Origin: Bryobacterales bacterium
GTDB taxonomy: Bacteria > Acidobacteriota > Terriglobia > Bryobacterales > UBA6623
Assembly: GCA_965263255.1 (NCBI GenBank)
Contig: CBDHHA010000008.1
Coordinates: forward strand, 3,461,987-3,525,986
Direction: 5' to 3'
DNA length: 64,000 bases
Shown: positions 1 through 48,728 of the stretch, one piece after another
Numbering within the stretch: the first letter of the stretch is position 1
Layout: every line of letters begins with the position of its first letter
Translations under genes and position numbers: made by a program
The notes under the pieces: generated by a model
Seen by the model: only the letters and a program-made list of their open reading frames with translations
Told to the model about the DNA's origin: nothing
The model's database searches: none

Positions 1-51
1 TCTCTCCGGCGCTGTGGCATACTCAGGGTGCGAGGGAAGCCGACCCTGGTC

Positions 52-1803
52 ATGCGCATTCCGCCGCTGCTGCCAGTCCTTCTGTCGGCCCTGATTCCCG
101 CATCGCTGCTCTCGCAGGGCGTTGCCAGCCCGAACGCTCGGCCCGTGAAGGCGCTGGACGCTTCGGGGCTCCCGTGGAATGCCAAGTTCGCCGATGTTGC
201 GGAGGAGGCCGGACTCGATCTTGTATTCACCTACGGCGGCAAGGACGAGAAGCGCTACATCATCGAGTCCAACGGTGCAGGCACGGCTCTCCTCGACTAC
301 GATGGCGACTCCAGGCTAGATGCCTTCTTGGTCAACGGCTCGACGCTGGAGGGTTTCGGGGACGGAGCAGCCCCAACGAACCGCCTGTACCGGAATACTG
401 GCGACGGCAGCTTCGAGGACACCACGCGGCAGAGCGGGCTCGGCCGATCCGGATGGGGCAGCGCAGTGTGCGCGGGCGACTTCGACAACGACGGCAACGT
501 AGACCTGTTTGTCGCCTATTGGGGCGAGGACGCGCTGTTTCGGAACAACGGGGACGGAACGTTCGAGGAGTCCGCGGCAGCGGCAGGAGTCGCCGGAGCC
601 GCGGATCAGTGGAGTTCCGGCTGCACCTTCGTGGACTACGACAGGGACGGGCTGCTTGACCTGCTTGTAACTCAGTACCAGCAGTTCGATCCGGAAACAG
701 CTCCCCCGCCCGGGAAGACGTCGAATTGCGAATGGAAGGGGATGCCGGTGTACTGCGGCCCGCGCGGCCTTCCGTTCGGCGGCGTGACGCTGTACCGGAA
801 CCTAGGGAACGGGTCGTTCGAGGACGCGAGCGAGACGGCGGGCGTGCGGGACGTGCGCGACTACTACGCATTCACTGCGGTAGCCGCGGACTTCGACGGG
901 GATGGCTGGCAGGACATCTACATCGCCTGCGACTCCACTCCAAGCATCCTGTTCGTCAACAACGGCGACGGGACGTTCACTGACTACGCCACGGAGACCG
1001 GTGTCGCGTTCAACGAGCACGGCTTCGAGCAGGGTGGCATGGGAGTCGGGGTCGGCGACTTCGACGGGGATGGCTGGCTGGACCTGGTGAAGACCAACTT
1101 CGCGGACGACTACCCGAATCTGTACCGGAACAACGACGGAGTGTTCTTCGAAGACATCTGCGTGCGAGCGGGGCTGGCCTCGAACCCTCAGTACGTGGGG
1201 TGGGGCGTGGACTTCGTGGACCTCGACAACGACGGCTGGCAGGATATCTTCCAAGTCAACGGTCACGTCTACCCGAAACTGGACCGCCAGCTCAAGGTGA
1301 CGGAAACGTACGTGCAGTCGAACCTCGTCTATCGCAACCTGAACGGGGAGCGATTCGAAGACGTGACGGCACTGGCCGGCGAGGCTCTGCTCCAGATCCG
1401 GTCCAGCCGAGGCGCGGCATTCGGGGACTACGACGGGGACGGCGACATCGATGTCCTGGTCATGAACATGGCGGACAGGGTCTCCCTGTTACGCAACGAC
1501 CTCCCTGGCGGGAGCAACTGGGTCCGCCTAACACTCCAAGGCACCGAATCGAACCGGGCGGCCATAGGCTCGACGGTGACCGTGCAGGCTTCCGGGAGGC
1601 GCCAGACAAGGGCCGTGGTGAGCCAGTCGAGCTACGTGTCCCACAGTGACTTGCGGGTCCACTTCGGCCTAGGCGATGCGGAGGGCGTCGACGCGATCTC
1701 CGTCCGCTGGCCGAGCGGCAAGGAAGAGGAGTTCCCGGGGGCCTCCGGCGGCCAGGGCTGGCTCCTAGTTGAGGGCTCGGGCAAGGTTGCGGCAATCCCG
1801 TGA
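52..1803 (+). CDS. CRTAC1-family secreted protein (FG-GAP/VCBS repeats + ASPIC/UnbV C-terminal domain)
   Basis: The ORF is 28..1803 with GTG at 28. ATG at 52 gives a signal-peptide-like start, MRIPPLLPVLLSALIPASLL. It has repeated Ca-binding FG-GAP/VCBS loops (DYDGDSRLD, DFDNDGNVD, DYDRDGLLD, DFDGDGWQD, DFDGDGWLD, DLDNDGWQD, DYDGDGDID). The C-terminus 'WVRLTLQGTESNRAAIGSTVTV...SYVSHSDLRVHFGLG' is typical of ASPIC/UnbV. Confidence 0.85.
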   Translation: MRIPPLLPVLLSALIPASLLSQGVASPNARPVKALDASGLPWNAKFADVAEEAGLDLVFTYGGKDEKRYIIESNGAGTALLDYDGDSRLDAFLVNGSTLEGFGDGAAPTNRLYRNTGDGSFEDTTRQSGLGRSGWGSAVCAGDFDNDGNVDLFVAYWGEDALFRNNGDGTFEESAAAAGVAGAADQWSSGCTFVDYDRDGLLDLLVTQYQQFDPETAPPPGKTSNCEWKGMPVYCGPRGLPFGGVTLYRNLGNGSFEDASETAGVRDVRDYYAFTAVAADFDGDGWQDIYIACDSTPSILFVNNGDGTFTDYATETGVAFNEHGFEQGGMGVGVGDFDGDGWLDLVKTNFADDYPNLYRNNDGVFFEDICVRAGLASNPQYVGWGVDFVDLDNDGWQDIFQVNGHVYPKLDRQLKVTETYVQSNLVYRNLNGERFEDVTALAGEALLQIRSSRGAAFGDYDGDGDIDVLVMNMADRVSLLRNDLPGGSNWVRLTLQGTESNRAAIGSTVTVQASGRRQTRAVVSQSSYVSHSDLRVHFGLGDAEGVDAISVRWPSGKEEEFPGASGGQGWLLVEGSGKVAAIP

Positions 1804-1814
1804 GTTCCGGGCGG

Positions 1815-2870
1815 ATGCGGCATATGGCGTTTGGAATTGCCCGTGCCGCGGCGATCGCGGCGTGCCTATGGCTGCCGGCAATGCTCCCGGGCCAGGGAGC
1901 GGAGGATGCCGCCGCTCTCACGGACAGCGGCCTTGAACTCGCCCAGCAAGGGCAGGTTTCGGCGGCAGCCGAACTCTGGAGGAAGGCGCTCGCTATCTCC
2001 CCGGAGTACTTCCCGGCGCTGTTCAACCTGGGCTACATGCATTTCTCGTCCGGGCAGTTGGGCGAAGCCGAGCCGCTGCTTGCACGAGCCGCTTCGGCAT
2101 CGCCGAACGACTTCAACGCGCACTACCTGCTTGGCGTCGTCCGCCAGAAGCGTGGCCGGGGCCAGGAGGCGTTGCAGGCATGGCGGCGCGCGCTGCAGAT
2201 TCAGCCCGGCCGCGTCCAGCTGATGCAGGTGATGGCGGTCGAGTACGGGAAGGGAAGGTTCCACCGCGAAGCGGCGGACGTGGCAACGCGCGCCCTGCGA
2301 CTGAGGCCGGACCAGGAGGATCTCCACTACATGGCGATCCATGCCTGCAGGGAGGCCGGGGACCTGCGGGCGGGCCTGAGGATTGCGTCAGATACAATTC
2401 GCCGATTCCCGGATTCGGCGCGAGCCAATTTCGAACACGCCTGGCACCTGCAAAAGGACGGCCGCTTCGAGGAGGCACTGCCGCTGTTGCGCAGGGCCGC
2501 GGAGCTGGACCCCGAATACGAGGAACCCCATTTCTTCTACGGGGACTGGTTGGTCAAGCAGGCCAGCTACGAGGAAGCTATCGCGCCACTGCAGAAAGCG
2601 ATCGACCTGCGAAGCGATTACATGCCCGCGCGCATTGCCCTTGCGCGCGCGCTAATGGGCCTGAGGAAATGGCCGGAAGCCGTTACGGCCTTAGAGGAGG
2701 CCGTGCGAATCGAACCCCGGCACCCCCAGCCTCACCTGATGCTGTCACAGGTCTACTTTCGACTTCGTGATCGCGAGAAGGCGCGTCAAGCGAAGGAACT
2801 CTCGCTGAAGCTGCGCAGGCAGAACCCCGCGTTCCTGGAGGCCGTGCAGTCCCGCCCGTTCCCGGAGTAG
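1815..2870 (+). CDS. TPR-repeat protein with N-terminal signal/anchor
   Basis: ORF 1800..2870. The GTG at 1800 overlaps the upstream stop, and ATG at 1815 gives MRHMAFGIARAAAIAACLWLPAML. It has multiple 34-aa TPR-like units (AxxxWxxALxxxPxxxxAxxNLG/YxxxG patterns). It probably forms an operon with the CRTAC1 gene. Confidence 0.8.
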   Translation: MRHMAFGIARAAAIAACLWLPAMLPGQGAEDAAALTDSGLELAQQGQVSAAAELWRKALAISPEYFPALFNLGYMHFSSGQLGEAEPLLARAASASPNDFNAHYLLGVVRQKRGRGQEALQAWRRALQIQPGRVQLMQVMAVEYGKGRFHREAADVATRALRLRPDQEDLHYMAIHACREAGDLRAGLRIASDTIRRFPDSARANFEHAWHLQKDGRFEEALPLLRRAAELDPEYEEPHFFYGDWLVKQASYEEAIAPLQKAIDLRSDYMPARIALARALMGLRKWPEAVTALEEAVRIEPRHPQPHLMLSQVYFRLRDREKARQAKELSLKLRRQNPAFLEAVQSRPFPE

Positions 2871-2982
2871 CGACCGAACAGCCGTCTTGGCCTATTCCGG
2901 CCAGGCGCGTACGGGTGAGAGGCGTCGCCCCGGCAGGATAGAAGCCTTGTGGCCGGCGGTCAGAGCGGGTGGGAACCGGGTC

Positions 2983-3864
2983 TCAGGCACCGCCGTGCTT
3001 CGCGGCCAGAGTGCGGAGCGTCGCGAGGTGGCGCGGCACCGCCTTGAAAGGATCCTCCTGCGCTTCGTACTCGAGTGCCATGTAGCCGCGATAGCCCGCC
3101 TTGGCGAACATCCCAACGATCCGGTCCCAGTCCGACTCCTCGTGGTTCCCCTCCTCGTCCCGGATGTGCACCTTGAACTGCGAGTTGACTGCGTACGGCA
3201 GGGCCAGCTCGATCTGATTGTACGGATCCGTTCGAAAGTTCCCGGTGTCGAGGTTGATTCCGACGTTGGGATGGTCGACGGCCGTCACGATCTGAATGAT
3301 TCTCTCGGCGCGGGCCGTAATGCCGCCGTGGTTCTCCAGCCCTAGGACCACGCCGCGATCGGCAGCATAGTCTGCTGTCCGCTTGAGGATCTCGGCGACC
3401 CAGGTCGCCGCTTCGTCTTCGGTGCTCCCTTCCGGGACTCGACCCCCAAAGACTCGGATGTGGCTGGAGCCAAGCCGATACGAAACATCGACCCAGTGGC
3501 GCAGCCAGGCAGCCTCCCTCTGCTGCTCGATGGGGCTCTTCCGGCAAAGGTCCGTCCGGATAGCGATGCTCGGGAGGTCAACGGCTGCCAAGTAGGCCTT
3601 CCTGCGGAACTCCGTAAGGAACGATTCCAGATTGTCCTGGGGAAACCAGTACACGGTCGAGTCGAGGCCGTCGACGCCGTTCTCGACCGCCATGTCGACG
3701 AGATCGAGGTAGCTGAGGGACCCGTCGCCGAGCGCCTTCCGGAACGAGTAGGCGCAGATCGCAGTCTTGAGGCGAGGGCCGTCGCCGGCAAGCTTCGGCG
3801 TTCCGGCCTGCAGTGCGGCTGGCAGCAGTGGAAGTGCGGATGTGAATTGGCGCCGTGTAACCAT
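2983..3864 (-). CDS. Sugar phosphate isomerase/epimerase (xylose isomerase-like TIM barrel, AP_endonuc_2 family), Tat-exported
   Basis: The track ORF 2983..4119 is over-extended. The internal ATG at 3864 gives a twin-arginine start, MVTRRQFTSALPLLPAALQAG. The body has the family pattern (IRVFGG..., LGLENHGGI, INLDTGNF, GYRGYMALEYE). Confidence 0.8.
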   Translation of the reverse strand: MVTRRQFTSALPLLPAALQAGTPKLAGDGPRLKTAICAYSFRKALGDGSLSYLDLVDMAVENGVDGLDSTVYWFPQDNLESFLTEFRRKAYLAAVDLPSIAIRTDLCRKSPIEQQREAAWLRHWVDVSYRLGSSHIRVFGGRVPEGSTEDEAATWVAEILKRTADYAADRGVVLGLENHGGITARAERIIQIVTAVDHPNVGINLDTGNFRTDPYNQIELALPYAVNSQFKVHIRDEEGNHEESDWDRIVGMFAKAGYRGYMALEYEAQEDPFKAVPRHLATLRTLAAKHGGA

Positions 3865-5010
3865 GGTCGAGATTATACCGGCTCGAACGTGCCCAGGAGT
3901 GATCGTGCAGCCCACGGGGGTACCAAATGCGAGTCCTGGGGCCTCAGATGACTGAACCCACGAGGCGAAGGGTCTGAGTTCTAAGGTTCGCGAGGATGCC
4001 CATGCCAAGGGACAGACGCTGGGTTCTTGATTGGGAGCATCCGGAGCCGATCGGTAAATCAATTTCGTATGCCGGGAATTCTCAGTGGGCATTGACATGC
4101 CGTTTCGGCACCACGCCACAAGGCATTAGCTCCGTCAGCACACGCTCGCAGCGCGATACACGCGGACGAGATCCAAGCGTTGTCGGCCAAAGCTAGCCTG
4201 GACTACGCTTCAGTCACCTCATTCACCGCAAGAATTCGGAGGACATGAAGCATATTCACCGTTCCCTACAACTTTTTTCACGAGCCCCCCTCGAGACTCC
4301 AAATTCCGCGCATGTGACCATTTTGGATTATCGTGTGGTACTCGGAATTGCTGCGAGATGCGGGCCAGCACCGGAGGCTGCGGCCTCACTGGCGCCCATA
4401 TTCGGGGAGCGCTGGAAGGACGGCCTCGGAGTGGCGCCAATCACGGAGCCAGATCCTGTCAGCAACGCTCAGGTAGGGGCCGGTGCGTGTCCACGTCTGC
4501 CGCGAGATTAGTGCCGTGCGGCGGTCGGGCGGTGGTCCTCTCGACGTGCTGTGGGCAAAGACCAGCCGCGGGGATACATTGGCGCTCCCCAACGGCTCCT
4601 TGTACGGGGCATTAGCCGTTCAGAACACAGGACTGGAGATACAAACTAGTCACGCACCTATCCCGGGATCGATCTAGGCCGAGGTGGAATCCGCACAAGT
4701 CCAGGTGAATCAGACAGTTGTGCGAGAGTTGCTTGCGGCAACCACCTGACCATGTTCGGAAATCAGTGACTTGGCGACAGCCCAATGTCGGGTACTTCAG
4801 CAATGCACTGGACTCAGTTGCTGGTCTACAACGAGAAGCGACCAGCTGTCGTGCAAGCCTGCCATCACAGTTACAATTGAGAATGATGTCGTTAATCACC
4901 CTGTACCATCGAACAGCCAGTTCCGAATCATGGCGTGGAGTACCGTTCGACCGCTCGAGAATCGACTTGGGACGCCATGAGAAGGACGGCTGGGTCGACT
5001 CGCGTGAGAA

Positions 5011-5437
5011 GATGGGCGAAAAGTACTCCGATTACTTGACGGGGAAGCTACCGGGCATAGACGAGTTGCACCCCAAGGGCCAACTCAGAGACCCAATCTG
5101 GAATTCTATTGCATCCTGTCAATCAGTTCTCGGCGGACATGTATTTGCCTCACCAAGGACCGACGGCAAATATTTCATTACAACCGAGGCGCGTGATATG
5201 CTCGCTAATCCTGATTCGTATACTGAGCCATTTCGTGCATGTCTCACCGCGTGGATGCTTGAACAACGAAGACTCGGTCAGTCAATTCCCAACGTCGACA
5301 AGGACATCATCCAGCAGATTCAGGATACTCACCGTTCAGAAAGGATTCAACAGCGGGCTGATCGTCTCCTCCAATTCATTGCATCCCTTTCCCAAGACTT
5401 CGAAAGGCCGTTATCATGCACCTTCCTGCGACCATGA
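5011..5437 (+). CDS. Hypothetical protein (islet gene A, partner or N-terminal part of the NDT/TIR-like protein)
   Basis: The frame is open from 4718. The first plausible ATG is at 5011 (MGEKYSDYLTG...). Its stop TGA (5435-5437) overlaps the ATG (5434-5436) of the next ORF as ATGA. The C-terminal 'CLTAWMLEQRRLGQSIPNVDKDIIQQIQ...RADRLLQFIASLSQ' reads like a helical adaptor region. I recognise no family. The start is uncertain. Confidence 0.4.
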
Positions 5438-6066
5438 TGCGAGCAATGGCGTGGTCACACTCGACAAATCCAATACACGTCACACAGCTCAGGAATCACT
5501 TGGCCGAACGTGGCTGGTTACAGTTCACGCACGACAAGGAATCCAGCGACACTAGTCTCTATGGTCAAGTACATCGTGAGTTCTTAATCACCGTAGACGG
5601 CTGGACACGACTCGAGGAAATTGAGAGTTCGGTCCCGGCACCGTCGACTCAAGCATTTGTCGCAATGTGGTTCGATACTGAGCTGGAAGACGCATGGGAC
5701 AACGGGATTCGGAAGGGAATCGAAGATGCCGGATACACCCCTGTACGTATCGATGAGAAGGAGCACAACGACAAAATCTGTGACCTAATAATTGCCGAGA
5801 TCCGCCGTTCGCGGTTCGTTGTGGCTGATTTTACTCATGGCGACACCGGAGCACGGGGAGGGGTGTACTTTGAAGCAGGCTTCGCAGGCGGTCTCGGCTT
5901 GGACGTAATTTACACCTGTCGACAAGACCAGAAGGATAAGATCCACTTTGACACGCGACAGTACAATCACATTCTATGGAGAGACAGTACAGATCTAAGG
6001 GAGAAGCTTTCAAATCGAATCTGCGCGACAATTGGAGAAGGCCCAATAGAGCACGGGCAGAGATAG
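5434..6066 (+). CDS. wHTH-like N-terminus + NDT/TIR-like (nucleoside 2-deoxyribosyltransferase-like Rossmannoid) domain protein
   Basis: The track ORF is 5416..6066, and ATG at 5434 is coupled to the upstream stop by ATGA. The N-terminal 'LRNHLAERGWLQF...ITVDGWTRLEEIE' is winged-helix-like. The C-terminal 'AFVAMWFDTELEDAWDNGIRKGIEDAGYTPVRID...ICDLIIAEIRRSRFVVADFTHGDTGARGGVYFEAGFAGGLGLDVIY' matches the beta-alpha pattern and conserved Glu motif of NDT/TIR-like domains. Confidence 0.6.
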   Translation: MMRAMAWSHSTNPIHVTQLRNHLAERGWLQFTHDKESSDTSLYGQVHREFLITVDGWTRLEEIESSVPAPSTQAFVAMWFDTELEDAWDNGIRKGIEDAGYTPVRIDEKEHNDKICDLIIAEIRRSRFVVADFTHGDTGARGGVYFEAGFAGGLGLDVIYTCRQDQKDKIHFDTRQYNHILWRDSTDLREKLSNRICATIGEGPIEHGQR

Positions 6067-6217
6067 CGTCAATTAGTTGGCAAGCGTGCAACTACGTTGC
6101 TCCCTACGTTCGTCAATGGATTGTGTTTGATCTCTCTCATACACTTGCCCAATCGAGTTGAGATTTGGAGCCGAGGCGAAGAGCGCCAAATGCTGGCAAT
6201 TTGAATGTGACCGACGA

Positions 6218-6253
6218 ACGGCCCGTCTGCCACGATCCCGGCAGACGGGCCGT
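6218..6253 (+). terminator. Perfect 14-bp GC-rich hairpin at the islet boundary (terminator-like, no U-tract)
   Basis: ACGGCCCGTCTGCC (6218-6231) pairs with GGCAGACGGGCCGT (6240-6253) across an 8-nt loop. It lies about 150 nt after the stop at 6066 and 14 nt before the kinase ATG at 6267. Confidence 0.4.
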
Positions 6254-6266
6254 ATCATGATATGGA

Positions 6267-7172
6267 ATGGACCTGTCGGGCCACCGCAAGCGCTCTGTGA
6301 TCTTCTGGATCGCGCTGGGCATCTGCTTGGTAGGGCTGGCCGTCGCGTTGAATGTCGGTTGGCTGGTCGCCAACTGGCGCAGCGAGGTCGTCCTAGGCCT
6401 TGGAATCGTGGCCGGGCTCCTTCTCATCGCAGGGCTTGTCCTGAACACGGTGTTCCTGGTTCGGGAAATCCGTCGGAACGAAAAGCACGACGAATTCATC
6501 AATGCCGTCACGCACGAGTTGAAGACGCCTGTCGCGTCGATCAAGCTCTATCTCGAAACGCTGCGGTCGAGGGATGTCGAGGAGAATCGCCGGCAGGAGT
6601 TCTTCGACACCATGCTGGCCGACATGGCTCGCCTGGAGGGGACGATCGAGCAAGTTCTCCGCGCCGGCGCCCTAGGCTCCCGGCGCAGGTCTCTGCGCAC
6701 GCAGCTCGACCTCCGGGAACTGGTCGGGGACTGCGTCGACCGGCTCCGGCGCAGCCATGACCTGCCCGAGGGCGTTCTCCGCTTTCGCAATCGGATTCCC
6801 GAGGGCGAGCCCGCTCTCGTGATGGGCAATGGCGAGGAGTTGCGAGCGGCGGTGTCGAATCTGATCGACAATGCCGTCAAGTATTCCGGCGACCACGCCC
6901 AGGTCTGGATCGAGGTCGCCAGGCGCGGGGCAGAGACGGTCTCGGTCAGCGTCCGAGACAACGGCATCGGAATCGCTCCTGACGAGCTCAAGCGAGTGTT
7001 CCGGCGCTTCTACAGGACGCCCGGAACGATGCGGTCAAAGGGCACGGGGCTCGGTCTCTACATCGTGCGGACCGTCGCAAGCAAGCACGGCGGGAGAGTT
7101 TTCGGGCACAGCGAGGGGAAGGGCCGCGGAAGCACGTTCACCATCGAGCTGCCGCTGCTGGCGACGGCATGA
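6267..7172 (+). CDS. Sensor histidine kinase (two TM helices, minimal extracytoplasmic loop)
   Basis: HisKA H-box 'FINAVTHELKTPVASI'. HATPase_c N-box 'NLIDNAVKYSG', 'DNGIGI' and 'GTGLGLYIV'. There are two N-terminal hydrophobic helices separated by only a few residues. Confidence 0.9.
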   Translation: MDLSGHRKRSVIFWIALGICLVGLAVALNVGWLVANWRSEVVLGLGIVAGLLLIAGLVLNTVFLVREIRRNEKHDEFINAVTHELKTPVASIKLYLETLRSRDVEENRRQEFFDTMLADMARLEGTIEQVLRAGALGSRRRSLRTQLDLRELVGDCVDRLRRSHDLPEGVLRFRNRIPEGEPALVMGNGEELRAAVSNLIDNAVKYSGDHAQVWIEVARRGAETVSVSVRDNGIGIAPDELKRVFRRFYRTPGTMRSKGTGLGLYIVRTVASKHGGRVFGHSEGKGRGSTFTIELPLLATA

Positions 7173-7930
7173 AGCGGGTGCTGATCGTCGAGGACGAAAC
7201 CCACCTCGCCAAAGGTCTCCAGTTCAACCTAGAAGCGGAGGGCTTCGCTACGCGGATCGCGGAGACGGGCGAGGAGGCCTTGCGGACGGTCCAGGACAGC
7301 CCGGCCTTCGACGCCCTGCTGGTAGACGTCATGCTGCCTGGCATGGATGGCTTCGAGGTCGTGCGCAAACTCCGATCACAGGGATGCTACGTGCCTGTGA
7401 TGATGCTCACGGCCAGGAAGAGACCCGGCGACATCGTCGAGGGACTGTCGGCCGGGGCGGACGACTACGTCCCAAAGCCGTTCGAGCTGGCGGTCTTGCT
7501 GGCCCGTATCCGCGGCCTTTTAAGGCGCCATCGCTGGAGCTCGAGGGAGCAGGACCCTCCGGTACCCGACACCTACGAGTTCAACGGCCGGACGGTGGAT
7601 TTTTCCAAGCAGCAGCTGCTGGTCGGCGGCGAGGTCCGTGACCTGACCCTGATGGAAGCCAAGCTCTTGCACCACCTGGTCGCGAACGAGGGTCGGAACG
7701 TGTCCCGCAAGAGCCTTCTGGAAGACGTGTGGGGAGTCAGGGAGGACACCGACACCCGGGCGATCGATAACTTCATCGTACGGCTGCGCCGATCGATTGA
7801 GCCGGATCCCGGCAAGCCCCGGCACCTCCTCACCGTTCGTGGCGTCGGATACCGGTTCGTCGCCGAGCCCGAGCCCGGGCTCAGTCGTCGTCTGTCGGGA
7901 GCGGCAGCGAGGCGGTTTCGCCGTCCGTGA
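7169..7930 (+). CDS. OmpR/PhoB-family response regulator
   Basis: Its start overlaps the kinase stop as ATGA. The receiver domain has 'VLIVEDE...DALLVDVMLPGMDG...MLTA...YVPKPF'. The winged-helix output domain has 'LTLMEAKLLHHL...VRLRRSIE...TVRGVGYRF'. Confidence 0.9.
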   Translation: MKRVLIVEDETHLAKGLQFNLEAEGFATRIAETGEEALRTVQDSPAFDALLVDVMLPGMDGFEVVRKLRSQGCYVPVMMLTARKRPGDIVEGLSAGADDYVPKPFELAVLLARIRGLLRRHRWSSREQDPPVPDTYEFNGRTVDFSKQQLLVGGEVRDLTLMEAKLLHHLVANEGRNVSRKSLLEDVWGVREDTDTRAIDNFIVRLRRSIEPDPGKPRHLLTVRGVGYRFVAEPEPGLSRRLSGAAARRFRRP

Positions 7931-8714
7931 TCCCAACCGCCCAGCGGAACGCCTCCAGCCACATCTGCTGGATCCCCGGATCGTCCCAGACGGAGTTGCG
8001 GTGACCCAGGACAGTTGAGAAGACCCGTCCCTTGCCGAAATCGCGGACCCAGGCCATGGCGAAATCCCTGTCCGCCCGCTGGACGCCGTCCTTCGTCAGG
8101 TCCACGCTCGCGGGATCCAAGCTGAGCAGCACGCGCACCTTGTCCCGGGAATAACGGTTCAGCTGGTAGATCTCGTCGGTGATCTCGAACGATGCCGGGA
8201 AGTGCCGGCTGATCGGGTGTGTCCGGTCGTCGACACGGACGCGGACCTTCTGGTGCCAAGGATGGTTGACGAAGGCCCCTCCAACCATGTCAATGTACTC
8301 GGGCCAGGTCTCGCGGAACGAGTCCGTGCCGCTGTGAGCGACTAGGATCGCCTTGCCGTCCTCCTTGACGAACCGCATCAGATCCGCCTTCTGCTCGGCA
8401 CCGAGCTCCAAGTCACCCTGCGTGTAGAACATCACCGCATCGAAGTAATCGAGGTTCTTGCGGTTGCCCCGCAGCTTCTGCTTGGTGACCAACTCCATGT
8501 CTGTCCGGAACCGCACGTCGAACAGTCCCGAACTCTCGCCGATCTTGGCCATGGTGAACATGGCGTGCGACACCGAGTCGTGGGCGAAGAAGTCGGATCC
8601 TCCTAGGAACAGCAGGTGCTTCCTTTCGTCTTGCTGTGCACTAGCAACCGTGGAGCTGGCGACAAGCAGGGCAGCGGCGACAAACGCAGTCTGGGCAATC
8701 TTCCCGAGTCTCAT
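7881..8714 (-). CDS. ThuA-domain (trehalose-utilisation-like) secreted protein
   Basis: It has a signal peptide, MRLGKIAQTAFVAAALLVASSTVASA. The ThuA-like pattern is 'FDAVMFYTQGDL...ILVAHSGTDSF...WPEY..MVGG.F..HPW...V.V.D..HPI....P..F.I.DE.Y...FAMAWVRDFGKGRVFSTVLGH'. Confidence 0.8.
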   Translation of the reverse strand: MRLGKIAQTAFVAAALLVASSTVASAQQDERKHLLFLGGSDFFAHDSVSHAMFTMAKIGESSGLFDVRFRTDMELVTKQKLRGNRKNLDYFDAVMFYTQGDLELGAEQKADLMRFVKEDGKAILVAHSGTDSFRETWPEYIDMVGGAFVNHPWHQKVRVRVDDRTHPISRHFPASFEITDEIYQLNRYSRDKVRVLLSLDPASVDLTKDGVQRADRDFAMAWVRDFGKGRVFSTVLGHRNSVWDDPGIQQMWLEAFRWAVGITDGETASLPLPTDDD

Positions 8715-8739
8715 GGGAACAAGTCTCGCACAGCCGGCC

Positions 8740-9486
8740 CTACAGCCGGTTGATCAGCGTGGCGACGTAGGCAGCGCCAAACCCGTTGTCGATATTGACG
8801 ACCGAGACGTTGCTCGCGCAGGAATTCAGCATTCCGAGCAGGGCTGATAGGCCGTTGAAGCTCGCCCCGTACCCGACGCTTGTTGGAACGGCGATCACCG
8901 GCACGGAGACCAAGCCTCCCAGAGCACTGGGCAGCGCCCCCTCCATGCCGGCGCAGCAGATCGCGACGCGCGCCTGCTGGATGCGCTCCATTCTCGAAAG
9001 GAGGCGATGGATGCCGGCGACCCCCACGTCGTAAATGGCGTCAACCTCGTTGCCCATCACCTCGGCCGTGACCCGCGCCTCTTCGGCGACCGGAATGTCA
9101 CTGGTGCCCGCGCACACCACCGCGATCCGACCCTTCCCCAGGGTCTTGGAATCCCGCTGCACGCGGATCGCGCCGGAACGACTGAAGTACTCGGCTGCCT
9201 CGTCGATGTCTCGAACCGCTTCGAACATCGCCTCGCTCGCCCGCGTGACGAGTAGGTTTGGCGACCGCTCGAGGAGCTTAGATGCGATCGCGCCCACCTC
9301 GTCCGCGGTTTTTCCCTGCCCCAGAATCACTTCGGGCATCCCGTGCCGCAACGCACGGTGGTGGTCCACCTTGGCGAATCCGAGATCCTCGAACGGCATG
9401 TGCCGCATTTCGCCGACGGCGTGATCGATGTCGCACCGCCCCTGCTGCACTTCTTCGAGGAGCGCGCGAAGCCGGGCCTCGTTCAT
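8740..9486 (-). CDS. larB: Nickel-pincer cofactor biosynthesis protein LarB (AIR-carboxylase-like NaAD carboxylase/hydrolase)
   Basis: There is near-motif-level agreement with LarB along the protein: '[28 protein letters not shown]', '[18 protein letters not shown]', '[12 protein letters not shown]', '[61 protein letters not shown]'. Confidence 0.85.
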
Positions 9487-10481
9487 GGCCTGGCTTTCGT
9501 CGGGAAGTAGGTGCCGATTTCCACGACGGGATCGGGGCCCATGCCGGGTGGCGTGTCAATCACCTGCACAACCTCGCGCTCCGGGACGGAAACGATCCAG
9601 ATCTGATCCTCGTCCTGGACTCCCGCGAACGCGTACATCCCGTCCTTGGAGAGGGAGATGGAGAGAGGAGCGCCGCCCAGCGGTATCCGGGCCACCTCCT
9701 TGCCGCTCGCGATGTCGGCGATCCCGACCGCGTGGCCGGTCTGGAGCGAATACACCAGAAGTTCCTCGCCGGGCGTCGCCACGATTCTGTTCACACCGTC
9801 GCCGGTGTCAATCGAGCCAATCCTCTGCTTCGAAGCCGTGTCTATGATGTCGATCCGGCCCTCATCCCGGCAGGTCACCCAGAGCTGCTTGCCGTCACGC
9901 GAAAGCAGGCTTCCCTGCGGTCCCTTGCCGACCCCGATCAGCTGGAGCTCACCGGTTACCGTGTGCACGGCTCCCACGGTCGCGCTCGCAGTGTTGGACA
10001 CGTAGCCCCAGATGCCGTCCCGGTCGAAGGTGACCATGTGCGGGTCCGTGCCGCCGTTGTCGAAGTCCTTGATCACGGCGCGGGCATCCAGGTCGACGAG
10101 CACGATCCGGTCCGGGTTCTCGGACGTGACGAGCGCCCGGCTCGACCCCGGATCGAGCGAAATGCCGTGCGGCCGGTGGAACTTGCCCATCGGCAGCACG
10201 CCGACACGCGTTTGCGCGTGGACGTCGATGATCGAGACCGTGTTGCCGCCAGGCCCGTCATAGTCCATCCAAAGGACGCCGTTGTCGGACACGTAGGCGA
10301 ATCTGCCGTCCCTGGATAGAACGACTTCGTGAGGGGTCTCGCCGATCGGCACTCCTCCCACCCTGGTCCCGGAAGACGCGTAGAATCCGACCGAATTGTT
10401 CTTCTTCTCGACAACGAGCAGGTCCGCCCGCTCTGCGGCGCCGAGAATTCCCGCAAGCCCGACGAGCAGCGCTATCAGCAA
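9483..10481 (-). CDS. YncE/YVTN-like beta-propeller repeat protein (secreted)
   Basis: The track ORF 9483..10766 would overlap the divergent ssb gene. The TTG at 10481 gives a hydrophobic N-terminus, [17 protein letters not shown], but the start is uncertain. It has repeated 'P.g...s.DG...yVs....' blades ([78 protein letters not shown]). Its stop overlaps the larB start as ATGA. Confidence 0.7.
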
Positions 10482-10563
10482 GTTAGGCTTCCGAGCAACA
10501 TCCCCGCATCCCCCCTGGCTCCCGCCTTGAACCGGGCGGGCTATTGATTGTACCGTGGATGCT

Positions 10564-11093
10564 ATGGCTAGCAGTCTGAACAAGGTCATGCTGATCGGCA
10601 ACCTAGGCAAGGACGCCGAGACCCGGCACACGCCCAGCGGGACAGCCGTCACCAACTTCAGCTCTGGCCACGACATACCGCACGAAGGATCAGAATTCGG
10701 GCGAGTGGAACGAGAGGACGGACTGGCACGACGTGGTCCTGTGGAAGGGTGAGAGGGTTGCACCATACCTCAAGAAGGGGAAGAAGGTCTTTGTCGAAGG
10801 CCGGCTGCAGACCCGCTCCTGGGAGGACCAGCAGGGCCAGAAGCGCTACCGAACGGAAGTCATCTGCGATTCGTTCGGCTTGATGCTGCTGAGGAGGCCG
10901 CGAGGGCGGTTCCGATTACAGTGGCGGACAGGGAGGGTTCCGGTCGAGTGGCGGAGGCGGCGGTTCCGGACAGGATTCGGATTACTCGCCCCCGCCCGAG
11001 GGAGGAAGCGGGCAACCGTCCGCTTCGGGCCAGTCCGAGGGGACCAGCGGCGGCGCAGCAGGGTCGTACGACGACGACGATATTCCGTTCTAG
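10564..11093 (+). pseudogene. ssb: Single-stranded DNA-binding protein gene interrupted by two 1-nt frame disruptions
   Basis: Frame 1 reads MASSLNKVMLIGNLGKDAETRHTPSGTAVTNFS. Frame 2, from about 10664, reads LATTYRTKDQNSGEWNERTDWHDVVLWKGERVAPYLKKGKKVFVEGRLQTRSWEDQQGQKRYRTEVICDSFGLMLL. Frame 3, from about 10893, reads GGREGGSDYSGG...SYDDDDIPF*. Joined, these give a canonical OB-fold SSB with a Gly-rich linker and the acidic DDDIPF tip. Confidence 0.85.
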
Positions 11094-11112
11094 GACGAGC
11101 CGGGATCGCGGC

Positions 11113-13029
<1,917 letters not shown>

Positions 13030-13065
13030 TTCGTAGCGCCTTCTTCCGCAGAATCCCGCTATCCG

Positions 13066-14547
13066 TTAAGACGCAATCCGGGTCGATTTAGATACAAAGC
13101 CGGCATCGGAGCCGCCCGGTTCGTCCAAGGCAAGGATGCGCCGCGTGGCCGCGGTCGGCGACAGTCCGTGCGCCGGGCCGAACTGACGGACCCAGACGAT
13201 CTGCTCGCGCGAGGCCGGTGTGTCGGACGCAGTGACGACGGGCCATCCCGCCCGTCTCCACGCGCTGACACGGGCGCTGTGGAACAGTTCCTTGACCTTC
13301 CGCGGCGCCCCGTGCCCGGCCGGGCGGTAACGATCGCCTGCCCGCCAGCTCCGCACGCGAAGCAGTCTCGGGACGCAATCCCAGTCGAGAAGTGCAGATT
13401 CCGCTTCATTGTACAGCGCTTGCGCTTCCGGGTGGGTTAGTAGGCGTGCGCGAAGTTCCCCGCCGTCGCCGCCAGGCACAACAGCATGACCGGGCACGGG
13501 CAGCGGAAGATCGAATGCGCCCGGGGGCTCTCCACCTCGGCGCGCGAAGCGGATGATGTCGAACGAGCGCTCGACGCGCAAGCCAGGCAGGTCTAGCGAA
13601 CCGCTGCCGGCGGGTGCGGCAACGAGAGCGCGGACTGCTTCGATATGCCCGAAGCTCGCACTTCCGCCGTCTAGGTACTGGGTTCTCACGATCGCGTCGA
13701 TAAGTCGCCGTTGCTCCGCAGGCAGCAGCTCTCGCACGGACTCGACCTGCAGGAGGACGGCGCCTTGCTCTTCCCGGACGCAGCGATTCATCAGTTCGCT
13801 CACCCGGCCCCGCCAGAAGCGCTCCTCCTCAAGGGCCCAGTCGGCGGTGTTGGCGAGGACTGACTCGATGTTCGGGTTCCAGTCACGGGCTAGCGCCGGC
13901 AGCAGCGAGTGACGGATCCGGTTACGGGCGAAGCTGGGGTCGGCATTGCTCGAATCCTCCCGCCAGTCCAGCCCCGACGCTCGCAGGTAGGCTAGGATCT
14001 CGTCGCGCGAGACGTCGAGCATCGGGCGGACAATGCCCGGATCCCGGACGGAATGGATCGCGCTGAGGCCGTGGCCGCCACTGCCCCTCAGCAAGCGGAA
14101 GAGTACGGTCTCGGCTTGGTCGGAGCGCGTGTGAGCGGTCGCGACGACGTTGACGGCCCCGGCCTCGACCAGTTCGCCGAAGTACCGGTAGCGGCTCCGA
14201 CGGCCATGCTCTTCGATATTGCCCCCTGCCAGGCGGGCCGCCGTGGCGATGTCGTCGCGACGGACGAACACGGGGACCGCAAGACTTGCCGCGAGGCTGC
14301 GGACAAGCTCCTCGTCGAGATCGGCTTCGGGTCCGCGGAGCGAGTGGTTGAGGTGGATCGCTGCGAGCGGGCAATCCGGGTACAGCTGCTTCAAGGCATG
14401 CAGGAGGGCGACCGAGTCGGCCCCGCCCGACACGGCGACGCCGATCCGCTGACAGCCTTCGAACATGCCGTCGCGGTCAACCCGCCTGGCAATCTTCGCC
14501 AGCACAGCTTCAATGTAGGCGATAAGGGTGGCGGAATCTCCGCCCAT
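13066..14547 (-). CDS. tilS: tRNA(Ile)-lysidine synthase TilS
   Basis: PP-loop 'VAVSGGADSVALLH' and 'ATAHTRSDQAETVLFRLLRGSG'. It sits immediately upstream of ftsH, the classic tilS-ftsH arrangement. Confidence 0.9.
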   Translation of the reverse strand: MGGDSATLIAYIEAVLAKIARRVDRDGMFEGCQRIGVAVSGGADSVALLHALKQLYPDCPLAAIHLNHSLRGPEADLDEELVRSLAASLAVPVFVRRDDIATAARLAGGNIEEHGRRSRYRYFGELVEAGAVNVVATAHTRSDQAETVLFRLLRGSGGHGLSAIHSVRDPGIVRPMLDVSRDEILAYLRASGLDWREDSSNADPSFARNRIRHSLLPALARDWNPNIESVLANTADWALEEERFWRGRVSELMNRCVREEQGAVLLQVESVRELLPAEQRRLIDAIVRTQYLDGGSASFGHIEAVRALVAAPAGSGSLDLPGLRVERSFDIIRFARRGGEPPGAFDLPLPVPGHAVVPGGDGGELRARLLTHPEAQALYNEAESALLDWDCVPRLLRVRSWRAGDRYRPAGHGAPRKVKELFHSARVSAWRRAGWPVVTASDTPASREQIVWVRQFGPAHGLSPTAATRRILALDEPGGSDAGFVSKSTRIAS

Positions 14548-14652
14548 CCGGGCTGAGAACTGGGCACGAGCCGCTGAGGACCCGTTTCGGAGTCTCGGCG
14601 CCGCCAGAGGGTCTCCCGAGCGTGGCCTGGATTCGCCCTAGCGTTTACGCTG

Positions 14653-16482
14653 ATGGGTAAGATGCGGTTGCTAATTCCAATCACGCTAGCCTTGGCGGCA
14701 GCCGCCGCCGCGGAGCCGTTTGAGGGCTGCGGAACCACCGCGGTCTACAGCCCTTGCGAGATCCGCATCGAGATCCCGGCCGATGAGGTCGAGAGCGGTT
14801 CGAACCTGTTCGCGAGCGTCACACTGAGGGCGGAGTTCCGTTCCCCCAAGGGCGGCCGCACGAAGGTCATGCCGGCCTTCTGGGACGGCGGCAGGGAATT
14901 CAAGATCCGGTTCTCGCCGGACTTCGCGGGTCGCTGGGACTTCCGCCTGATCTCGAACATCCTGTCGCTCGATCGCGCAACCGGCAGCTTCCAGGCAGTC
15001 GAGGCGCGGACGCCGGGCTTCATCGAGGTGTTCAACACCCGCTACTTCAAGTACCCGCTCACGAACAGTCCCCACTTCTGGCTCGGAGACACCGTGCTGG
15101 GCCTTTCCTCGATGCCATGGGAGGATTTCCAGGCCTTCGCTGATCGCCGATCGGAGCAGGGGTTCACCCACTTGCGCGCCTCCGTAATGGGCGCTCCGGG
15201 CGAGCCCTCCGAAGCCTTCTCCGAGCCGGAGGAGCCGGACCTGGAGCACTTCCGCGAGCTTGACCGCAGGATCGCGCACCTGCACGAGCTCGGCTTCGTG
15301 ACGGATCTGGTGCTCGCCAATTCTGGCAGCGAGCTGGAAGGCCTGTTCCCGCGCCGCCGGCAGAGAGACCGTTACGTCCAGTACGTCTGCTCGCGGTATG
15401 CGGCGTACAGCGTCACCTGGCTGATGCTGCTGGAGTGGGAGAGCCACGACGACGGAGCCCGGATAGCCGCCGACCTCGCGGCGTCGGTCTCCAAGTACGA
15501 CCCTTATGCGCACCCGAAGTCGACCGGCGCCACGGTGACCTCAGCGCCGCTGGCACAGGACGAGTGGCAAGACTACATCACTCAGAATCGCGTCGAGCCG
15601 TCCCTCGCGTCGATCGAGTACGAAACCCAGCGGGCTCCGTTCGTCAATACGGGTGTCGGCGCCGGGGCGGACGCCGCGGGAGCCCGCCGACAAGCATGGA
15701 CCGCAGCGACCCGGGGGCACTCGGTGACCCTGGCCGGTTCCGGGGGCTCGCCGGAGTCTCCGGTCGCGGAAGCGATGACTCACTTGGAGGGATTCTTCGC
15801 GCAGTCCAGGTACTTCGACCTCCAGCCCCACTACCGCGTCGTGGGCGGATCGGGCCTGGCGCTGCAGAGGGTGCCGCCCCGGCAGGAGCGGGCGGTGGGA
15901 ATCGAGTACATCGTCTACGCGGAGGACCCGGGGCTGATCGAACTGGTGATGCAGAAGCAGGAATACTCGGTCAGCTGGTACAACCCTGCCAACGGAGCTT
16001 GGTTCGACCAGAAGAAGAAATTCAAGGGGGACCGCTACCGCTCTCGGACGCCCGACGACGAGCACGACTGGGTCCTGTACCTGCGGCGCGAGGGCAAGAA
16101 GCAGGACTACAACAAGTCGTTCATCCTGGAGTCGAAACTGCCGAAGTTCCGGGAAGTGGAGCACTCCCCGTCGGAGCTGCCGTTCGAGATTCAGCTGCCC
16201 GAGGAGGGCGCGATCCGGATCGGTAGCGCGCGCGAATTCAATGCGACGCTGACCAAGAACACGATCGCGGCCAGGCGGATGCAGTGGCTCTGGACGGGCG
16301 AGGTCTCCGGCTCGGGACGGGGCTCGAGAGTCTTGGGCACGACACAGTCGGGGCGGTTCACGGTGCCCGCCAGCTTAGCGGCTTCGCTTCCCGCCACCCT
16401 GTCAGTCCGAGTGACCGGCCTGGACGGAGCCGGCCGCCTCTTCGAAGCATTCCGCCTCTACCCGCTCGAACCCGCTGAGTAA
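14653..16482 (+). CDS. DUF5060/DUF4038-type putative glycoside hydrolase (GH140-like TIM barrel), secreted
   Basis: It has a signal peptide, MGKMRLLIPITLALAAAAAA. The N-terminal Ig-like segment has 'FRSPKGGRTKVMPAFWDGGREFKIRFSPDFAGRWDF'. This is followed by 'HFWLGDTV...' and 'GFTHLRASV', typical of DUF4038. Confidence 0.65.
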   Translation: MGKMRLLIPITLALAAAAAAEPFEGCGTTAVYSPCEIRIEIPADEVESGSNLFASVTLRAEFRSPKGGRTKVMPAFWDGGREFKIRFSPDFAGRWDFRLISNILSLDRATGSFQAVEARTPGFIEVFNTRYFKYPLTNSPHFWLGDTVLGLSSMPWEDFQAFADRRSEQGFTHLRASVMGAPGEPSEAFSEPEEPDLEHFRELDRRIAHLHELGFVTDLVLANSGSELEGLFPRRRQRDRYVQYVCSRYAAYSVTWLMLLEWESHDDGARIAADLAASVSKYDPYAHPKSTGATVTSAPLAQDEWQDYITQNRVEPSLASIEYETQRAPFVNTGVGAGADAAGARRQAWTAATRGHSVTLAGSGGSPESPVAEAMTHLEGFFAQSRYFDLQPHYRVVGGSGLALQRVPPRQERAVGIEYIVYAEDPGLIELVMQKQEYSVSWYNPANGAWFDQKKKFKGDRYRSRTPDDEHDWVLYLRREGKKQDYNKSFILESKLPKFREVEHSPSELPFEIQLPEEGAIRIGSAREFNATLTKNTIAARRMQWLWTGEVSGSGRGSRVLGTTQSGRFTVPASLAASLPATLSVRVTGLDGAGRLFEAFRLYPLEPAE

Positions 16483-29945: not shown

Positions 29946-30811
29946 CGACTGGGGCGTTCTCGCGGGGGGGCCACCTCAGTGCGACGCCTGGATGCCTTGA
30001 GCGGCCGCTTTCGCAATCGCGAGACATGGAAGCTGTCAGGGGTCGTTGAGCGAGCCGGTGGGCAACTTCGCTCGCGATTGGCAGCTTGTGGGCGGTAGCC
30101 AGGATCGCCGCCCTTGGCTGGTGCGGGCCTTCTCGGCTCCTCGGCAACCATGGAACTGGCTGTTCCGAGTGCAAGCCGCTCGGCGGGCGCATTCGGAGAG
30201 GGTCACACTGAGAGCCTAGGTGTCCCTTCAAGGCCGAGCGCGGCGGCGCATGCCGGGACAATCGGTGGTCCGAGACAAGCACCGGCATTGGCGGCCAAGA
30301 CGATCCCTGGAAGGCATCGCGGCTTACACACGTACACCGCGCTCGGCGAGCTGCGGGTCCGCCACGTCCCAATCTGCCGGAAAGGCGGGCAACGGGCTGA
30401 CCTCCTACGATTGCTGGTCGGCGGGTTCACGGTTCGGCCGTGCCGCTCCTTCTCGGTCTTGCTGAACACCGTCGAGCCGACCGTTGCTTGCCGGCGCTCG
30501 CGCACTGTAGTCGAAACGCTCATGCTTGTCCGAGCATCGGGTGGACCTGCACTGCTCGCCACACGATCCGATTCACAGTGATGCAGGACTTCATACCGCA
30601 CCCGGCCCCGCTTACCCGGTCCGCAATAGGCAATCGCATCCGCTCACGGCTAGCCACGGGACACGCATCCGGGCCAAGAATCGCCCCGCTTGCCGAATCT
30701 CCCTTAGATTTCTCTGCCCATGTGTTTGACAGGCGTTTGGCACGGGGCGAAACTTACATTCACCGTCGCCGCTGGCGGCCATGAAGGGATGTTCGCCTTG
30801 GAGGTGATTGC

Positions 30812-31129
30812 ATGCTTGTGAGTCGAGGACCTGCCTGGTGCTTGCTTCTCGCTGGTGGTGCTCTGGCAGTGGCACCTGACCTGTGTCTTGCGATTGAGCA
30901 GACTTGTTCGGGCTGCATCGATGCCTGCTGCGAGTGGTCGGTAGCGGGAGTAACGGAGTTTCCACACGATGAATTCGTCAGGCTCAACACCAAGACTCCA
31001 CTCACCCTGCATGGATGTCAGGCAGGCAGTACGGCCTACGACAGTCGGGAATTCAGCAGCTGCCAGATCGCCGCCTACAACCGTTGCCTAAAACGCAACT
31101 GCTCCAGACTGCGTGTATTCGTACATTGA
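30812..31129 (+). CDS. Hypothetical small Cys-rich secreted protein (orphan)
   Basis: There is a strong Shine-Dalgarno, GGAGGTGA, 7 nt upstream of the ATG. The N-terminus MLVSRGPAWCLLLAGGALAVA is signal-peptide-like. The predicted mature part of about 80 aa has 9 Cys (the 105-aa ORF has 10). Codon usage is atypical for the host. I recognise no homology. Confidence 0.3.
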   Translation: MLVSRGPAWCLLLAGGALAVAPDLCLAIEQTCSGCIDACCEWSVAGVTEFPHDEFVRLNTKTPLTLHGCQAGSTAYDSREFSSCQIAAYNRCLKRNCSRLRVFVH

Positions 31130-31837
31130 CGGCATTCCCTCTCCCGTCAACCTCTTCAAGCGGAAGCTTCCTGGCCATGTGGGTGTGAACGGCACCAAGC
31201 CGGTCAGGCTCACAGTTGGCGAGGTCAATGTTGTCGAGCCCGCAAGAGAACGAGAGAGGAAGGATGCGCACGGACTCGTGTCCCGTCAAGAGTCATTGCA
31301 AACGGTGGACTGACCACTGCGGTTCGATTGTATTTTTCCACCGACCTGTACGTTCACTAGCGACCTCTTGAGTACTTCGGAGACTCGGCACAACTCTTTA
31401 TTCTTGATTGACTTGCAAGAGGCTTCAGGGTTCTTCAGACTGGAAGCCCCGTACCATCCGGGCGCATCAGTCGGACCGGCGTCTGTTGCGTCGGGAACGC
31501 TTCCGCCCCCGAATGACCGTCAGCAGAGTCTGCTTCAACTGACAGTCATCATGCCGTGGCACGTCACGCCTTTCGTGCATTGGATCGTTCTCCTATTTGG
31601 CCAGCCAGGGATGTCCTGGCGTCACCGTGTGTTACAGTCGCCTAGCAATATCGCGCCGGCGGGTCCCCGGCAAGGCCATCATGGGGCGGGCACTGCCGCA
31701 GAGGACGTGGTTCTGCCGTCCCCCTGGAGGCGGTGCACTGCCCGTCGGGCGGATCCCTTCACGGAATTGGCGTACAGGCTACGTACGCAAGTTGCTGGGC
31801 CTGGAGCGGAGCCTGGATGAATGAGAGGACGACCAAG

Positions 31838-47972: not shown

Positions 47973-48333
47973 TCAGACTACGGGCGACTTCGCATTGCCT
48001 TCCGCAACTGGACCTTCTTCGCTGCCTTGGTCGCGCCTTCTTCCTCGCATTGCGATGGCAGTCCCTGCGGATGCAGCCCATATGATCCTGCCGCTACGGA
48101 TTTCCACGAGTTCGACGCCGGCAGACAAGTACTGGTCCGCGCAAAGCGTAGTCTGCAGCATCAGGATCCGTAACCAGACTCAGTGGCAGCTTCTGCTTTA
48201 GTATCTGCGCACGAACCAGCTCGTCAAAGTGACCCATGTCCTCGACATAGACACTGGCCTCGGATGGGAGGGGCGCAGCTCGGACAAGCCCGGCGCTTGC
48301 TAACAGCAAAGAGACGACGATCCAGTTCCGCAT
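47973..48333 (-). pseudogene. Small signal-peptide protein apparently split by a frameshift
   Basis: GGAGGAGGC lies directly upstream of the ATG at 48333. The ORF reads MRNWIVVSLLLASAGLVRAAP...DPDAADYALRG and then runs into a stop. The overlapping frame continues as DQYLSAGVELVEIRSGRIIWAASAG.... The joined text, 'ADY.L.G...v.lv.i.sG.iiWa.s', resembles small periplasmic or lipoprotein-like domains. Confidence 0.35.
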
Positions 48334-48659: not shown

Positions 48660-48728
48660 GGCTGGACCGAACGCGAACACTGATCCCGCTGCTGTCCTGA
48701 CTCGGGCGTCCAGATCCGATTCCTGTTC

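Follow-up and report, generated by a model that had tools for sequence, protein, structure and literature searches.

The nucleoside deoxyribosyltransferase (NDT)-like effector of the retron Ec86 reportedly acts in defense through depletion of adenine derivatives (bioRxiv 10.1101/2023.08.16.553469; PMC7736814), and TIR-like DUF4062 proteins are NADases that a phage portal activates (bioRxiv 10.64898/2026.05.01.722283). Anantharaman et al. (2013) described AbiJ-NTD1 fused to a nucleoside deoxyribosyltransferase domain, and in such Abi N-domain fusions the toxin was proposed to cleave glycosidic bonds (PMC3710099). Here we analyzed a stretch of 64,000 nucleotides from a Bryobacterales (Acidobacteriota) bacterium (GenBank contig CBDHHA010000008.1, positions 3,461,987 to 3,525,986; hereafter the window), in which a short islet of unusual composition, at 4610–6209, lies between a core sugar isomerase gene and the genes of a two-component system. 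We consider it likely that this islet is a foreign insert which carries one broken defense-type gene and is now decaying. Seen as part of a genome, this is a small islet of an ordinary sort, a decaying relic of gene transfer.

The gene in the islet belongs to a large family of proteins of about 320 residues, and this family has points in common with each of the systems above. Like the NDT-like effectors of type II retrons (Retron-Eco1/Ec86, Sen2), which are about 300 residues long, family proteins combine an NDT-like fold with a winged helix and a conserved catalytic-type glutamate. However, the NDT domain is N-terminal in the retron effectors and C-terminal in the family, which has an extra N-terminal domain. 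No reverse transcriptase domain or Rfam match was found in the islet, and reverse transcriptase was absent from eight homologue loci; with neither reverse transcriptase nor msr/msd noncoding RNA, the islet is not a retron. Nor does a CD-NTase, Argonaute, ThsA, or other partner lie nearby, and because neither the islet nor the homologue loci contain a cyclase, the islet is not CBASS.

With TIR and TIR-like NADase effectors the family shares residence in defense islands and a match to the PADLOC model for CBASS effectors PDLC00733 (‘Effector TIR’), with E-values of 5.9e-8 for the window open reading frame (ORF) and down to 1.8e-12 for the family. The match is restricted to the effector-domain core (profile positions 259–364 of 388), so that only ~100 residues are covered. 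The modeled C-terminal domain of the family superposes on TIR domains (Foldseek probability 1.0) with a root-mean-square deviation of 3.5–4 Å over ~145 columns. Pfam TIR_2 matched the family with an E-value of 0.012, below cut-off. DUF4062 (PF13271) was absent from the Pfam matches of five family members at E ≤ 1, and by Pfam the family is unlike DUF4062/Swarozyc proteins.

The best Pfam and fold matches of the family are NDT, DNPH1, and BcmB (PF05014, clan Nribosyltransf). Unlike these NDT-type N-glycosidases, the family adds two N-terminal modules and sits in conflict-system neighborhoods rather than in salvage operons. It resembles Abi-type proteins in which an N-terminal domain is joined to a toxin, that is, a variable recognition module fused to an enzymatic toxin, but, unlike the AbiJ-NTD fusions, it has no AbiJ_NTD match in Pfam, and nothing in the PDB resembles its N-domain in structure. 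The family shares the fold of these systems, and probably their chemistry as well. The locus itself is like mobility-less islets and defense ‘hotspots’ in its atypical composition, in the empty site found in relatives, and in the different fills that the site carries from one genome to another (window, L022, L023); it is unlike typical examples in being very small, in carrying a single broken gene, and in having no integrase, tRNA, or repeats.

Foreign DNA between divergent core genes

An earlier note on this DNA, made by reading the sequence, had proposed a lower-GC islet at 4600–6260. The overall G+C content (GC) of the window is 65.6%, and its 1-kb windows have a mean of 0.656 and a standard deviation of 0.031; the lowest of them, 0.512 at 5001–6000 (z = −4.6), is the deepest dip in the window; the runner-up dips have z-scores of no more than −2.5 and −2.2 in depth. 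When 2000–9000 was segmented by likelihood with two change points, the low-GC segment fell at 4610–6209 (twice the log-likelihood difference, 74.8), bounds that nearly coincide with those proposed; GC was 51.4% inside this segment versus 63.5% in the remainder of the segmented region. The two hand counts offered in the note (30/60 G+C in the line at 5761 and 44/60 in that at 7261) proved exact on re-count, and its description of mixed third codon positions in the islet ORFs, against flanking genes ending in G or C, agreed with the GC at third positions (GC3), which was 0.53–0.56 in the islet ORFs, within a range of 0.52–0.56 for the islet, versus 0.79–0.83 in seven flanking genes. In tetranucleotide usage, 4501–6500 was the strongest outlier of the window (z = 5.6), with a correlation to the window profile of 0.50 versus a mean of 0.92. 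The region is the top compositional anomaly in the window, and by GC, GC3, and tetranucleotide statistics alike the stretch is foreign.

We then compared the locus with its relatives. Searching with the isomerase protein gave 58 loci among GTDB species representatives, of which the best were Bryobacterales (Acidobacteriota) metagenome-assembled genomes with at most 89% identity. In 11 Bryobacterales relatives (L006, L007, L009, L010, L011, L012, L015, L019, L021, L052, and L055), whose isomerases are 69–85% identical to that of the window, the kinase and isomerase genes are direct divergent neighbors with start codons 73–456 bp apart, and the gene order is the same as in the window (histidine kinase, response regulator, ThuA, AIRC). 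In the window, the two start codons are 2402 bp apart, and the islet ORFs have no match in any of these 11 relatives. Homology at the DNA level ends at 3877–3880 and restarts at 6250–6251, and the DNA of 3880–6250 has no match in any relative. Therefore, the synteny break is 3880–6250 (2.37 kb), which exceeds the compositional islet of 1.6 kb. The foreign composition together with the empty syntenic site in 11 relatives supports the reading of a horizontally acquired islet that the note had put forward.

Homology with relatives stops directly beyond two short conserved boxes, one on each side (3862–3877 on the minus strand and 6251–6269 on the plus strand), and the spacer between the two boxes cannot be aligned even among the relatives themselves. 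On the left, native sequence ends, ahead of the synteny break, with a TATAAT box (3872–3877, minus strand), 7 nt upstream of the isomerase ATG and invariant in alignments with L005, L006, L007, L010, L019, and L021. On the right, a conserved CGTATCATG (6251–6259, plus strand; aligned with L006, L007, L010, L019, and L021) lies 8 nt ahead of the kinase ATG; it includes a TATCAT, 8–9 nt from the start codon, that may serve as a −10 element. Judged by their positions, the two boxes would fit leaderless or near-leaderless divergent transcripts.

The native left flank is a sugar isomerase/epimerase gene with a xylose-isomerase-like TIM barrel (2983–3864, minus strand; Pfam AP_endonuc_2, E = 1e-27). 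Its true start is the ATG at 3864, giving 293 residues with a twin-arginine-like N-terminus (MVTRRQF), and homology with the 58 relatives spans residues 1–293. The 378-residue ORF listed at 2983–4119 on the minus strand is an artefact of ORF listing that overextends the gene by 85 codons into the islet side. The native right flank consists of a histidine kinase gene (6267–7172, plus strand; Pfam HisKA/HATPase_c) and an OmpR-type response regulator gene (7169–7930, plus strand; Pfam Response_reg/Trans_reg_C), both syntenic in the 11 relatives.

Two other relatives carry different DNA at the same spacer. In L022 (2994–10001), a 7-kb fill encodes an AAA_22 ATPase and a YhgA-like Transposase_31 protein and also carries a duplicated 5′ fragment of the isomerase gene (8709–8950). 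In L023 (8594–10001), a 1.4-kb fill encodes one 361-residue protein without a Pfam match. Both fills are host-like in GC. Because these two genomes carry other fills, the kinase–isomerase spacer is a recurrent landing place, which suggests an insertion hotspot.

Between the isomerase and the compositional islet lies a left flank (3878–4609) that has no counterpart in any relative. Its GC is 57% at 3880–4320 and 65% at 4321–4600, and, as the earlier note had described, 3880–4720 holds only short overlapping ORFs, without frame or codon periodicity. Comparison of the left flank with the 58 related loci, the rest of the window, and 35 loci of the family (blastn and tblastx) gave nothing significant, and there was no significant match among PLSDB plasmids. 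A tblastx match to L081 (E = 6e-5) was discarded, being a sum over non-collinear high-scoring pairs of ~32 bits each, and the similarity of the left flank to the 85 bp upstream of the gene in the closest relative (L005) did not exceed that of shuffles. Among the short ORFs, that at 4245–4508 had two marginal matches (E = 7–8e-5) in a HMMER search of 1.84 billion proteins, both of which we treated as chance: P0122 (2228 residues) covers only query residues 55–79, and P0123 is a translated 273-bp tandem repeat with loose similarity over ~45 nt. The source of P0123 is a metagenome contig of 665 bp (L095:1–665) that consists of this 273-bp tandem repeat with (GAGTAC)n inverted motifs. The stretch 3878–4609 may represent decayed DNA from an older portion of the insert, or else native spacer that is expanded or hypervariable.

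The note had pointed to this flank as the place where remnants of a recombinase or transposase might be found; a six-frame Pfam search of 3865–5030 recovered none, and its one immunoglobulin-domain match (E = 0.065) is meaningless. No integrase, transposase, tRNA, or Rfam match was found within 3800–6300, neither Tandem Repeats Finder nor an Rfam search with a lenient E-value returned anything over the same region, and no direct or inverted repeats flank the islet boundaries. These empty searches agree with the note in that the mobility genes were lost or were never present. The sole tRNA gene in the window, tRNA-Lys (TTT) at 54956–55031 on the minus strand, is distant from the islet and unrelated to it. 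The two weaker GC dips of the window, at ~30000–31800 and ~47300–48800 (z = −2.5 and −2.2), contain only ORFs of 97–182 residues without Pfam matches; they may be additional small islets or long noncoding spacers.

At the right edge, a perfect, GC-rich 14-bp hairpin with an 8-nt loop (6218–6253), which the note had also picked out, lies 14 nt upstream of the kinase ATG. It is stable relative to shuffles: the 86-nt stretch 6190–6275 folds with a free energy of −35.3 kcal/mol (z = −3.6). The stem sequence is unique within the window. A canonical intrinsic terminator was ruled out, as a T-tract is absent from both strands. Homology with relatives restarts inside the last 3–4 nt of the hairpin, and for this reason the hairpin may be native kinase upstream sequence rather than cargo; alternatively, it may be a factor-dependent or U-less terminator that insulates the kinase against read-through, or a recombination junction.

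One gene in two reading frames

The islet contains two ORFs on the plus strand, ORF A (4718–5437) and ORF B (5416–6066; 216 residues). To relate them to the family, we built a hidden Markov model (HMM) from 43 full-length members and compared it with every stop-to-stop piece in the six reading frames of the window. Exactly two pieces matched. The piece 4709–5434 (frame +1) matched HMM positions 8–111 with an E-value of 1.7e-20 (nt ~5093–5410), and the piece 5362–6063 (frame +0) matched HMM positions 121–318 with an E-value of 5.5e-95 (nt ~5428–6054). These two matches are collinear and in two frames; therefore, ORF A and ORF B, which the earlier note had treated as two ORFs, are one gene. The frame changes at 5410–5428, with the downstream frame at −1 relative to the upstream frame, and comparison with homologues puts the lesion at TTCC(C)TG, ~5424–5427, where most likely a single base has dropped out. 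Programmed −1 frameshifting was ruled out, since 5405–5435 contains no slippery heptamer.

The 5′ half of the gene (5012–5425, plus strand, in the frame of ORF A) encodes the N-terminal domain, as defined by HMM positions 8–111 and by alignment. The C-terminal ~110 residues of ORF A align with the N-domain of ~320-residue family proteins, and the aligned motifs are DPIWNS...SPRTDGKYFIT...AWMLEQRRLG...RADRLLQFI. The candidates for the start codon are ATG 5012 and TTG 5066, and the in-frame stretch 4718–5011 is without coding signature. The 3′ half (5425–6066, plus strand) encodes a MarR-like winged helix and an NDT/TIR-like domain (HMM positions 121–318) and keeps the conserved glutamate motif of the family as GVYFEAGFA. 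A word-based protein search with ORF A returned only ORF A itself; its homology came to light via alignment and the HMM.

The protein family and its neighborhoods

Homologues of ORF B form at least 7,900 clusters at 90% identity, nearly all of ~320 residues; 103 of the 120 best homologues are single ORFs of 300–350 residues. The best homologue is 58% identical, and the nearest ones, at 55–58%, come from other phyla. Homologues at ~55% identity are found in Alphaproteobacteria, Chloroflexi, Gemmatimonadetes, and Poribacteria, a scattered distribution of the kind that genes exchanged horizontally typically show. The family is without a model in Pfam or NCBIfam, literature searches turned up no paper describing it, and sequence searches of the PDB (phmmer with a homologue, and the family profile) returned nothing below an E-value of 0.1. 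Pfam Nuc_deoxyrib_tr (PF05014) scored 19.6 bits with the window ORF and 21.3–25.4 bits with five homologues, short of its gathering threshold of 28.8 bits in each case.

We modeled the closest full-length homologue, P0002, with AlphaFold2 (mean predicted local distance difference test [pLDDT], 83.5). In Foldseek searches, its C-domain superposed on NDT, DNPH1, and the CMP N-glycosidase BcmB (probability 1.0; E-values of ~1e-3 to 1e-2; target template-modeling scores of 0.5–0.74) and also on the TIR domains of SPARTA, SARM1, and AbTir. As modeled, the C-terminal domain has an NDT/TIR-like N-glycosidase fold. It carries the invariant glutamate of the family within the motif YYEAGF (YFEAGF in the window copy), and this residue would be equivalent to the NDT nucleophile; N-glycosidase or transferase activity is putative. 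The middle ~60 residues resemble a MarR-type winged helix, with weak profile matches (E = 0.1–0.7). For the N-domain, an AlphaFold2 model from the window's own sequence (pLDDT 83.9; predicted template-modeling score 0.70) is a four-stranded beta-meander plus four helices, and a fold search of the PDB with this model gave no match (best E = 0.29).

We next considered where family members are found, in a small sample of eight chromosomal loci (seven with full-length members) and two plasmid loci. Among the seven chromosomal loci whose family member is full-length, five contain restriction-modification (RM)-like, AbiE, RmuC, TIR, DUF87, or KAP genes. In L002 and L063, an Eco57I-type gene or an uncalled large gene together with an SNF2-PLD helicase gene lies upstream of the family gene, and genes for a ~260-residue protein and RmuC lie downstream; in L003, the upstream genes are N6_N4_Mtase, AbiJ_NTD4, and ResIII, and the same ~260-residue protein and RmuC follow. 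In L004, the family gene comes after AbiEi/AbiEii. In L066, it overlaps the end of a DUF87 (HerA-like) ATPase gene in a methyltransferase operon, with a KAP NTPase gene and an IS3 transposase gene adjoining. In L064 and L065, as in the window, the family gene stands alone among housekeeping genes.

A conserved block of family gene, 254–275-residue protein, and RmuC recurs in three loci (L002:7001–10087, L003:7001–10054, and L063:6001–9016), where it follows genes for helicases and methylases of RM-like or BREX-like type; the 254–275-residue protein has no match in Pfam or NCBIfam, and the three genes may form a multi-gene system. The operon in L066 (1493–6993) consists of genes for an N6_N4 methyltransferase, a 386-residue unknown protein, the DUF87 ATPase, and the family protein, the last two overlapping by 14 nt.

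Outside chromosomes, members were detected on 22 plasmids in PLSDB and on 24 contigs in IMG/VR, but in none of the INPHARED phage genomes. At one of the two plasmid loci examined, a Leptospira plasmid (L070), a SEFIR-domain gene and a methyltransferase gene adjoin the family gene, whose product is WP_192505173.1. Some plasmid copies have been annotated by NCBI as ‘nucleoside 2-deoxyribosyltransferase’. Incomplete members also occur. In L068 (1034–1998), a family member is split between N-domain and winged helix at nearly the same place as the window copy; the name of this contig reads 2x, which makes a sequencing error likely. In L067, a 5′-truncated copy lies behind an unrelated Sel1-like fragment.

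By analogy with the retron, DUF4062, and Abi-type precedents, the chances that intact family members act in defense, as single-protein Abi-type sensor-effectors, appear to us about even; those of any particular substrate are lower. The fuller proposal, that the family is an unrecognized single-protein anti-phage system, whose N-domain would sense infection and whose N-glycosidase would deplete NAD+ or nucleotides or excise DNA bases, with the window copy a dead relic or a rare split variant, is one that we advance tentatively and would place somewhat short of even.

Fate of the window copy and origin of the insert

Because a lost base splits it into two overlapping ORFs, the window copy is most likely an inactive pseudogene. 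Its sequence departs from that of the family at 6 of the 84 columns that are at least 95% conserved, versus a leave-one-out mean of 1.5 for the family, a count that is biased because, within the set, the window sequence forms the outgroup; the changes include that of the invariant KIDD to KICD, CPIW to DPIW, and YYEAGF to YFEAGF. These changes at conserved positions may be taken as weak support for decay.

The best surviving alternative to a pseudogene, that a split, two-protein version works, with ORF A as the sensor and ORF B translated from ATG 5416 through coupling to the end of ORF A, seems to us improbable. The arrangement would suit such a pair, as the break falls in the linker between independently folding domains, the ATG of ORF B overlaps the stop of ORF A by 22 nt, and the N-domain of the window copy still models with confidence. 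Short family members of ~200 residues do exist (P0004, P0005), but those examined were the split copy on the 2x contig L068, which has its N-domain in the other frame, and the 5′-truncated copy in L067, and the family is overwhelmingly encoded by a single ORF. Moreover, HMM positions 112–120 are lost in the window copy, and several near-invariant residues are altered.

More improbable still is a sequencing or assembly error, with the genome encoding an intact protein of ~340 residues. Many loci in the data set come from long-read metagenome assemblies, and the low-coverage L068 copy is split near the same place. However, a second assembly (L001; ENA ERZ25072258) has this frameshift too, on a contig of 2.38 Mb with 227.37x in its name. 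Window positions 1–16067 correspond to L001:4586–20651; the two are 100% identical over 1–9580 and differ by 26 mismatches and 3 gaps in the 6.5 kb from 9581 onward. That two assemblies differing elsewhere share the frameshift speaks against an error made at random in assembly, and the site of the lesion is a CC dinucleotide rather than a long homopolymer. An exact-pattern metagenome scan for intact or frameshifted alleles gave no match. The uneven divergence between the window and L001, which are very close strains, is possibly a recombination tract.

It is hardly credible that the stretch is instead an ancestral one which the relatives have deleted, or a low-GC gene native to this genome: although the kinase–isomerase spacer is hypervariable in the clade (60–450 bp, with no conservation) and is filled differently in L022 (by 7 kb) and L023 (by 1.4 kb), no trace of the stretch exists in 11 relatives that span 69–85% isomerase identity, its GC3 of 0.52–0.56 versus 0.80 indicates almost no amelioration, and its nearest homologues are only 55–58% identical and belong to other phyla.

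Several points weigh against a foreign insert with one broken, decaying defense-type gene. The stretch 3880–4609 may belong either to the insert or to native spacer, so that the insert has no defined left end. If both assemblies derive from the same long-read chemistry, they could share a systematic error. The putative catalytic glutamate is intact, and both the position of the break, in an inter-domain linker, and the ATG of ORF B, which overlaps the end of ORF A, are those that a functional split would have. Two of the eight chromosomal contexts (L064 and L065) are plain housekeeping neighborhoods, and both the defense role of the family and its substrate are putative.

We nevertheless favor the foreign insert, and its history is probably as follows. 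In an uncultured soil Bryobacterales (Acidobacteriota) bacterium, foreign DNA entered the short, hypervariable spacer between two divergent promoters, most likely via illegitimate or homology-facilitated recombination, and has been decaying since. Judged by composition the insert measures 1.6 kb, and judged by synteny it may reach 2.37 kb. The one recognizable piece of cargo is the single gene of the large, unnamed ~320-residue family, whose members elsewhere are stand-alone or operon passengers of defense islands, plasmids, and viral or prophage contigs. In an intact member, the N-terminal and winged-helix modules would recognize an infection cue, and the C-terminal domain would then cleave the N-glycosidic bond in NAD+ or a nucleotide, starving the phage. 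The gene in the window has lost one base between N-domain and winged helix, yielding the two overlapping ORFs.

For the annotation of this genome, two “hypothetical proteins” are to be corrected to one broken gene in a small foreign insert. For the host, the insert has parted the divergent promoters of the core isomerase gene and the two-component operon, and the kinase gene now has foreign DNA in place of its former upstream control region. Beyond this locus, the islet draws attention to a protein family that is very large, is scattered across taxa, and has an N-domain whose fold has no known counterpart. This family is a reasonable candidate for defense-system screens, for which the intact P0002 or P0086, from Pelagibacterium halotolerans, would be preferable to the window copy.

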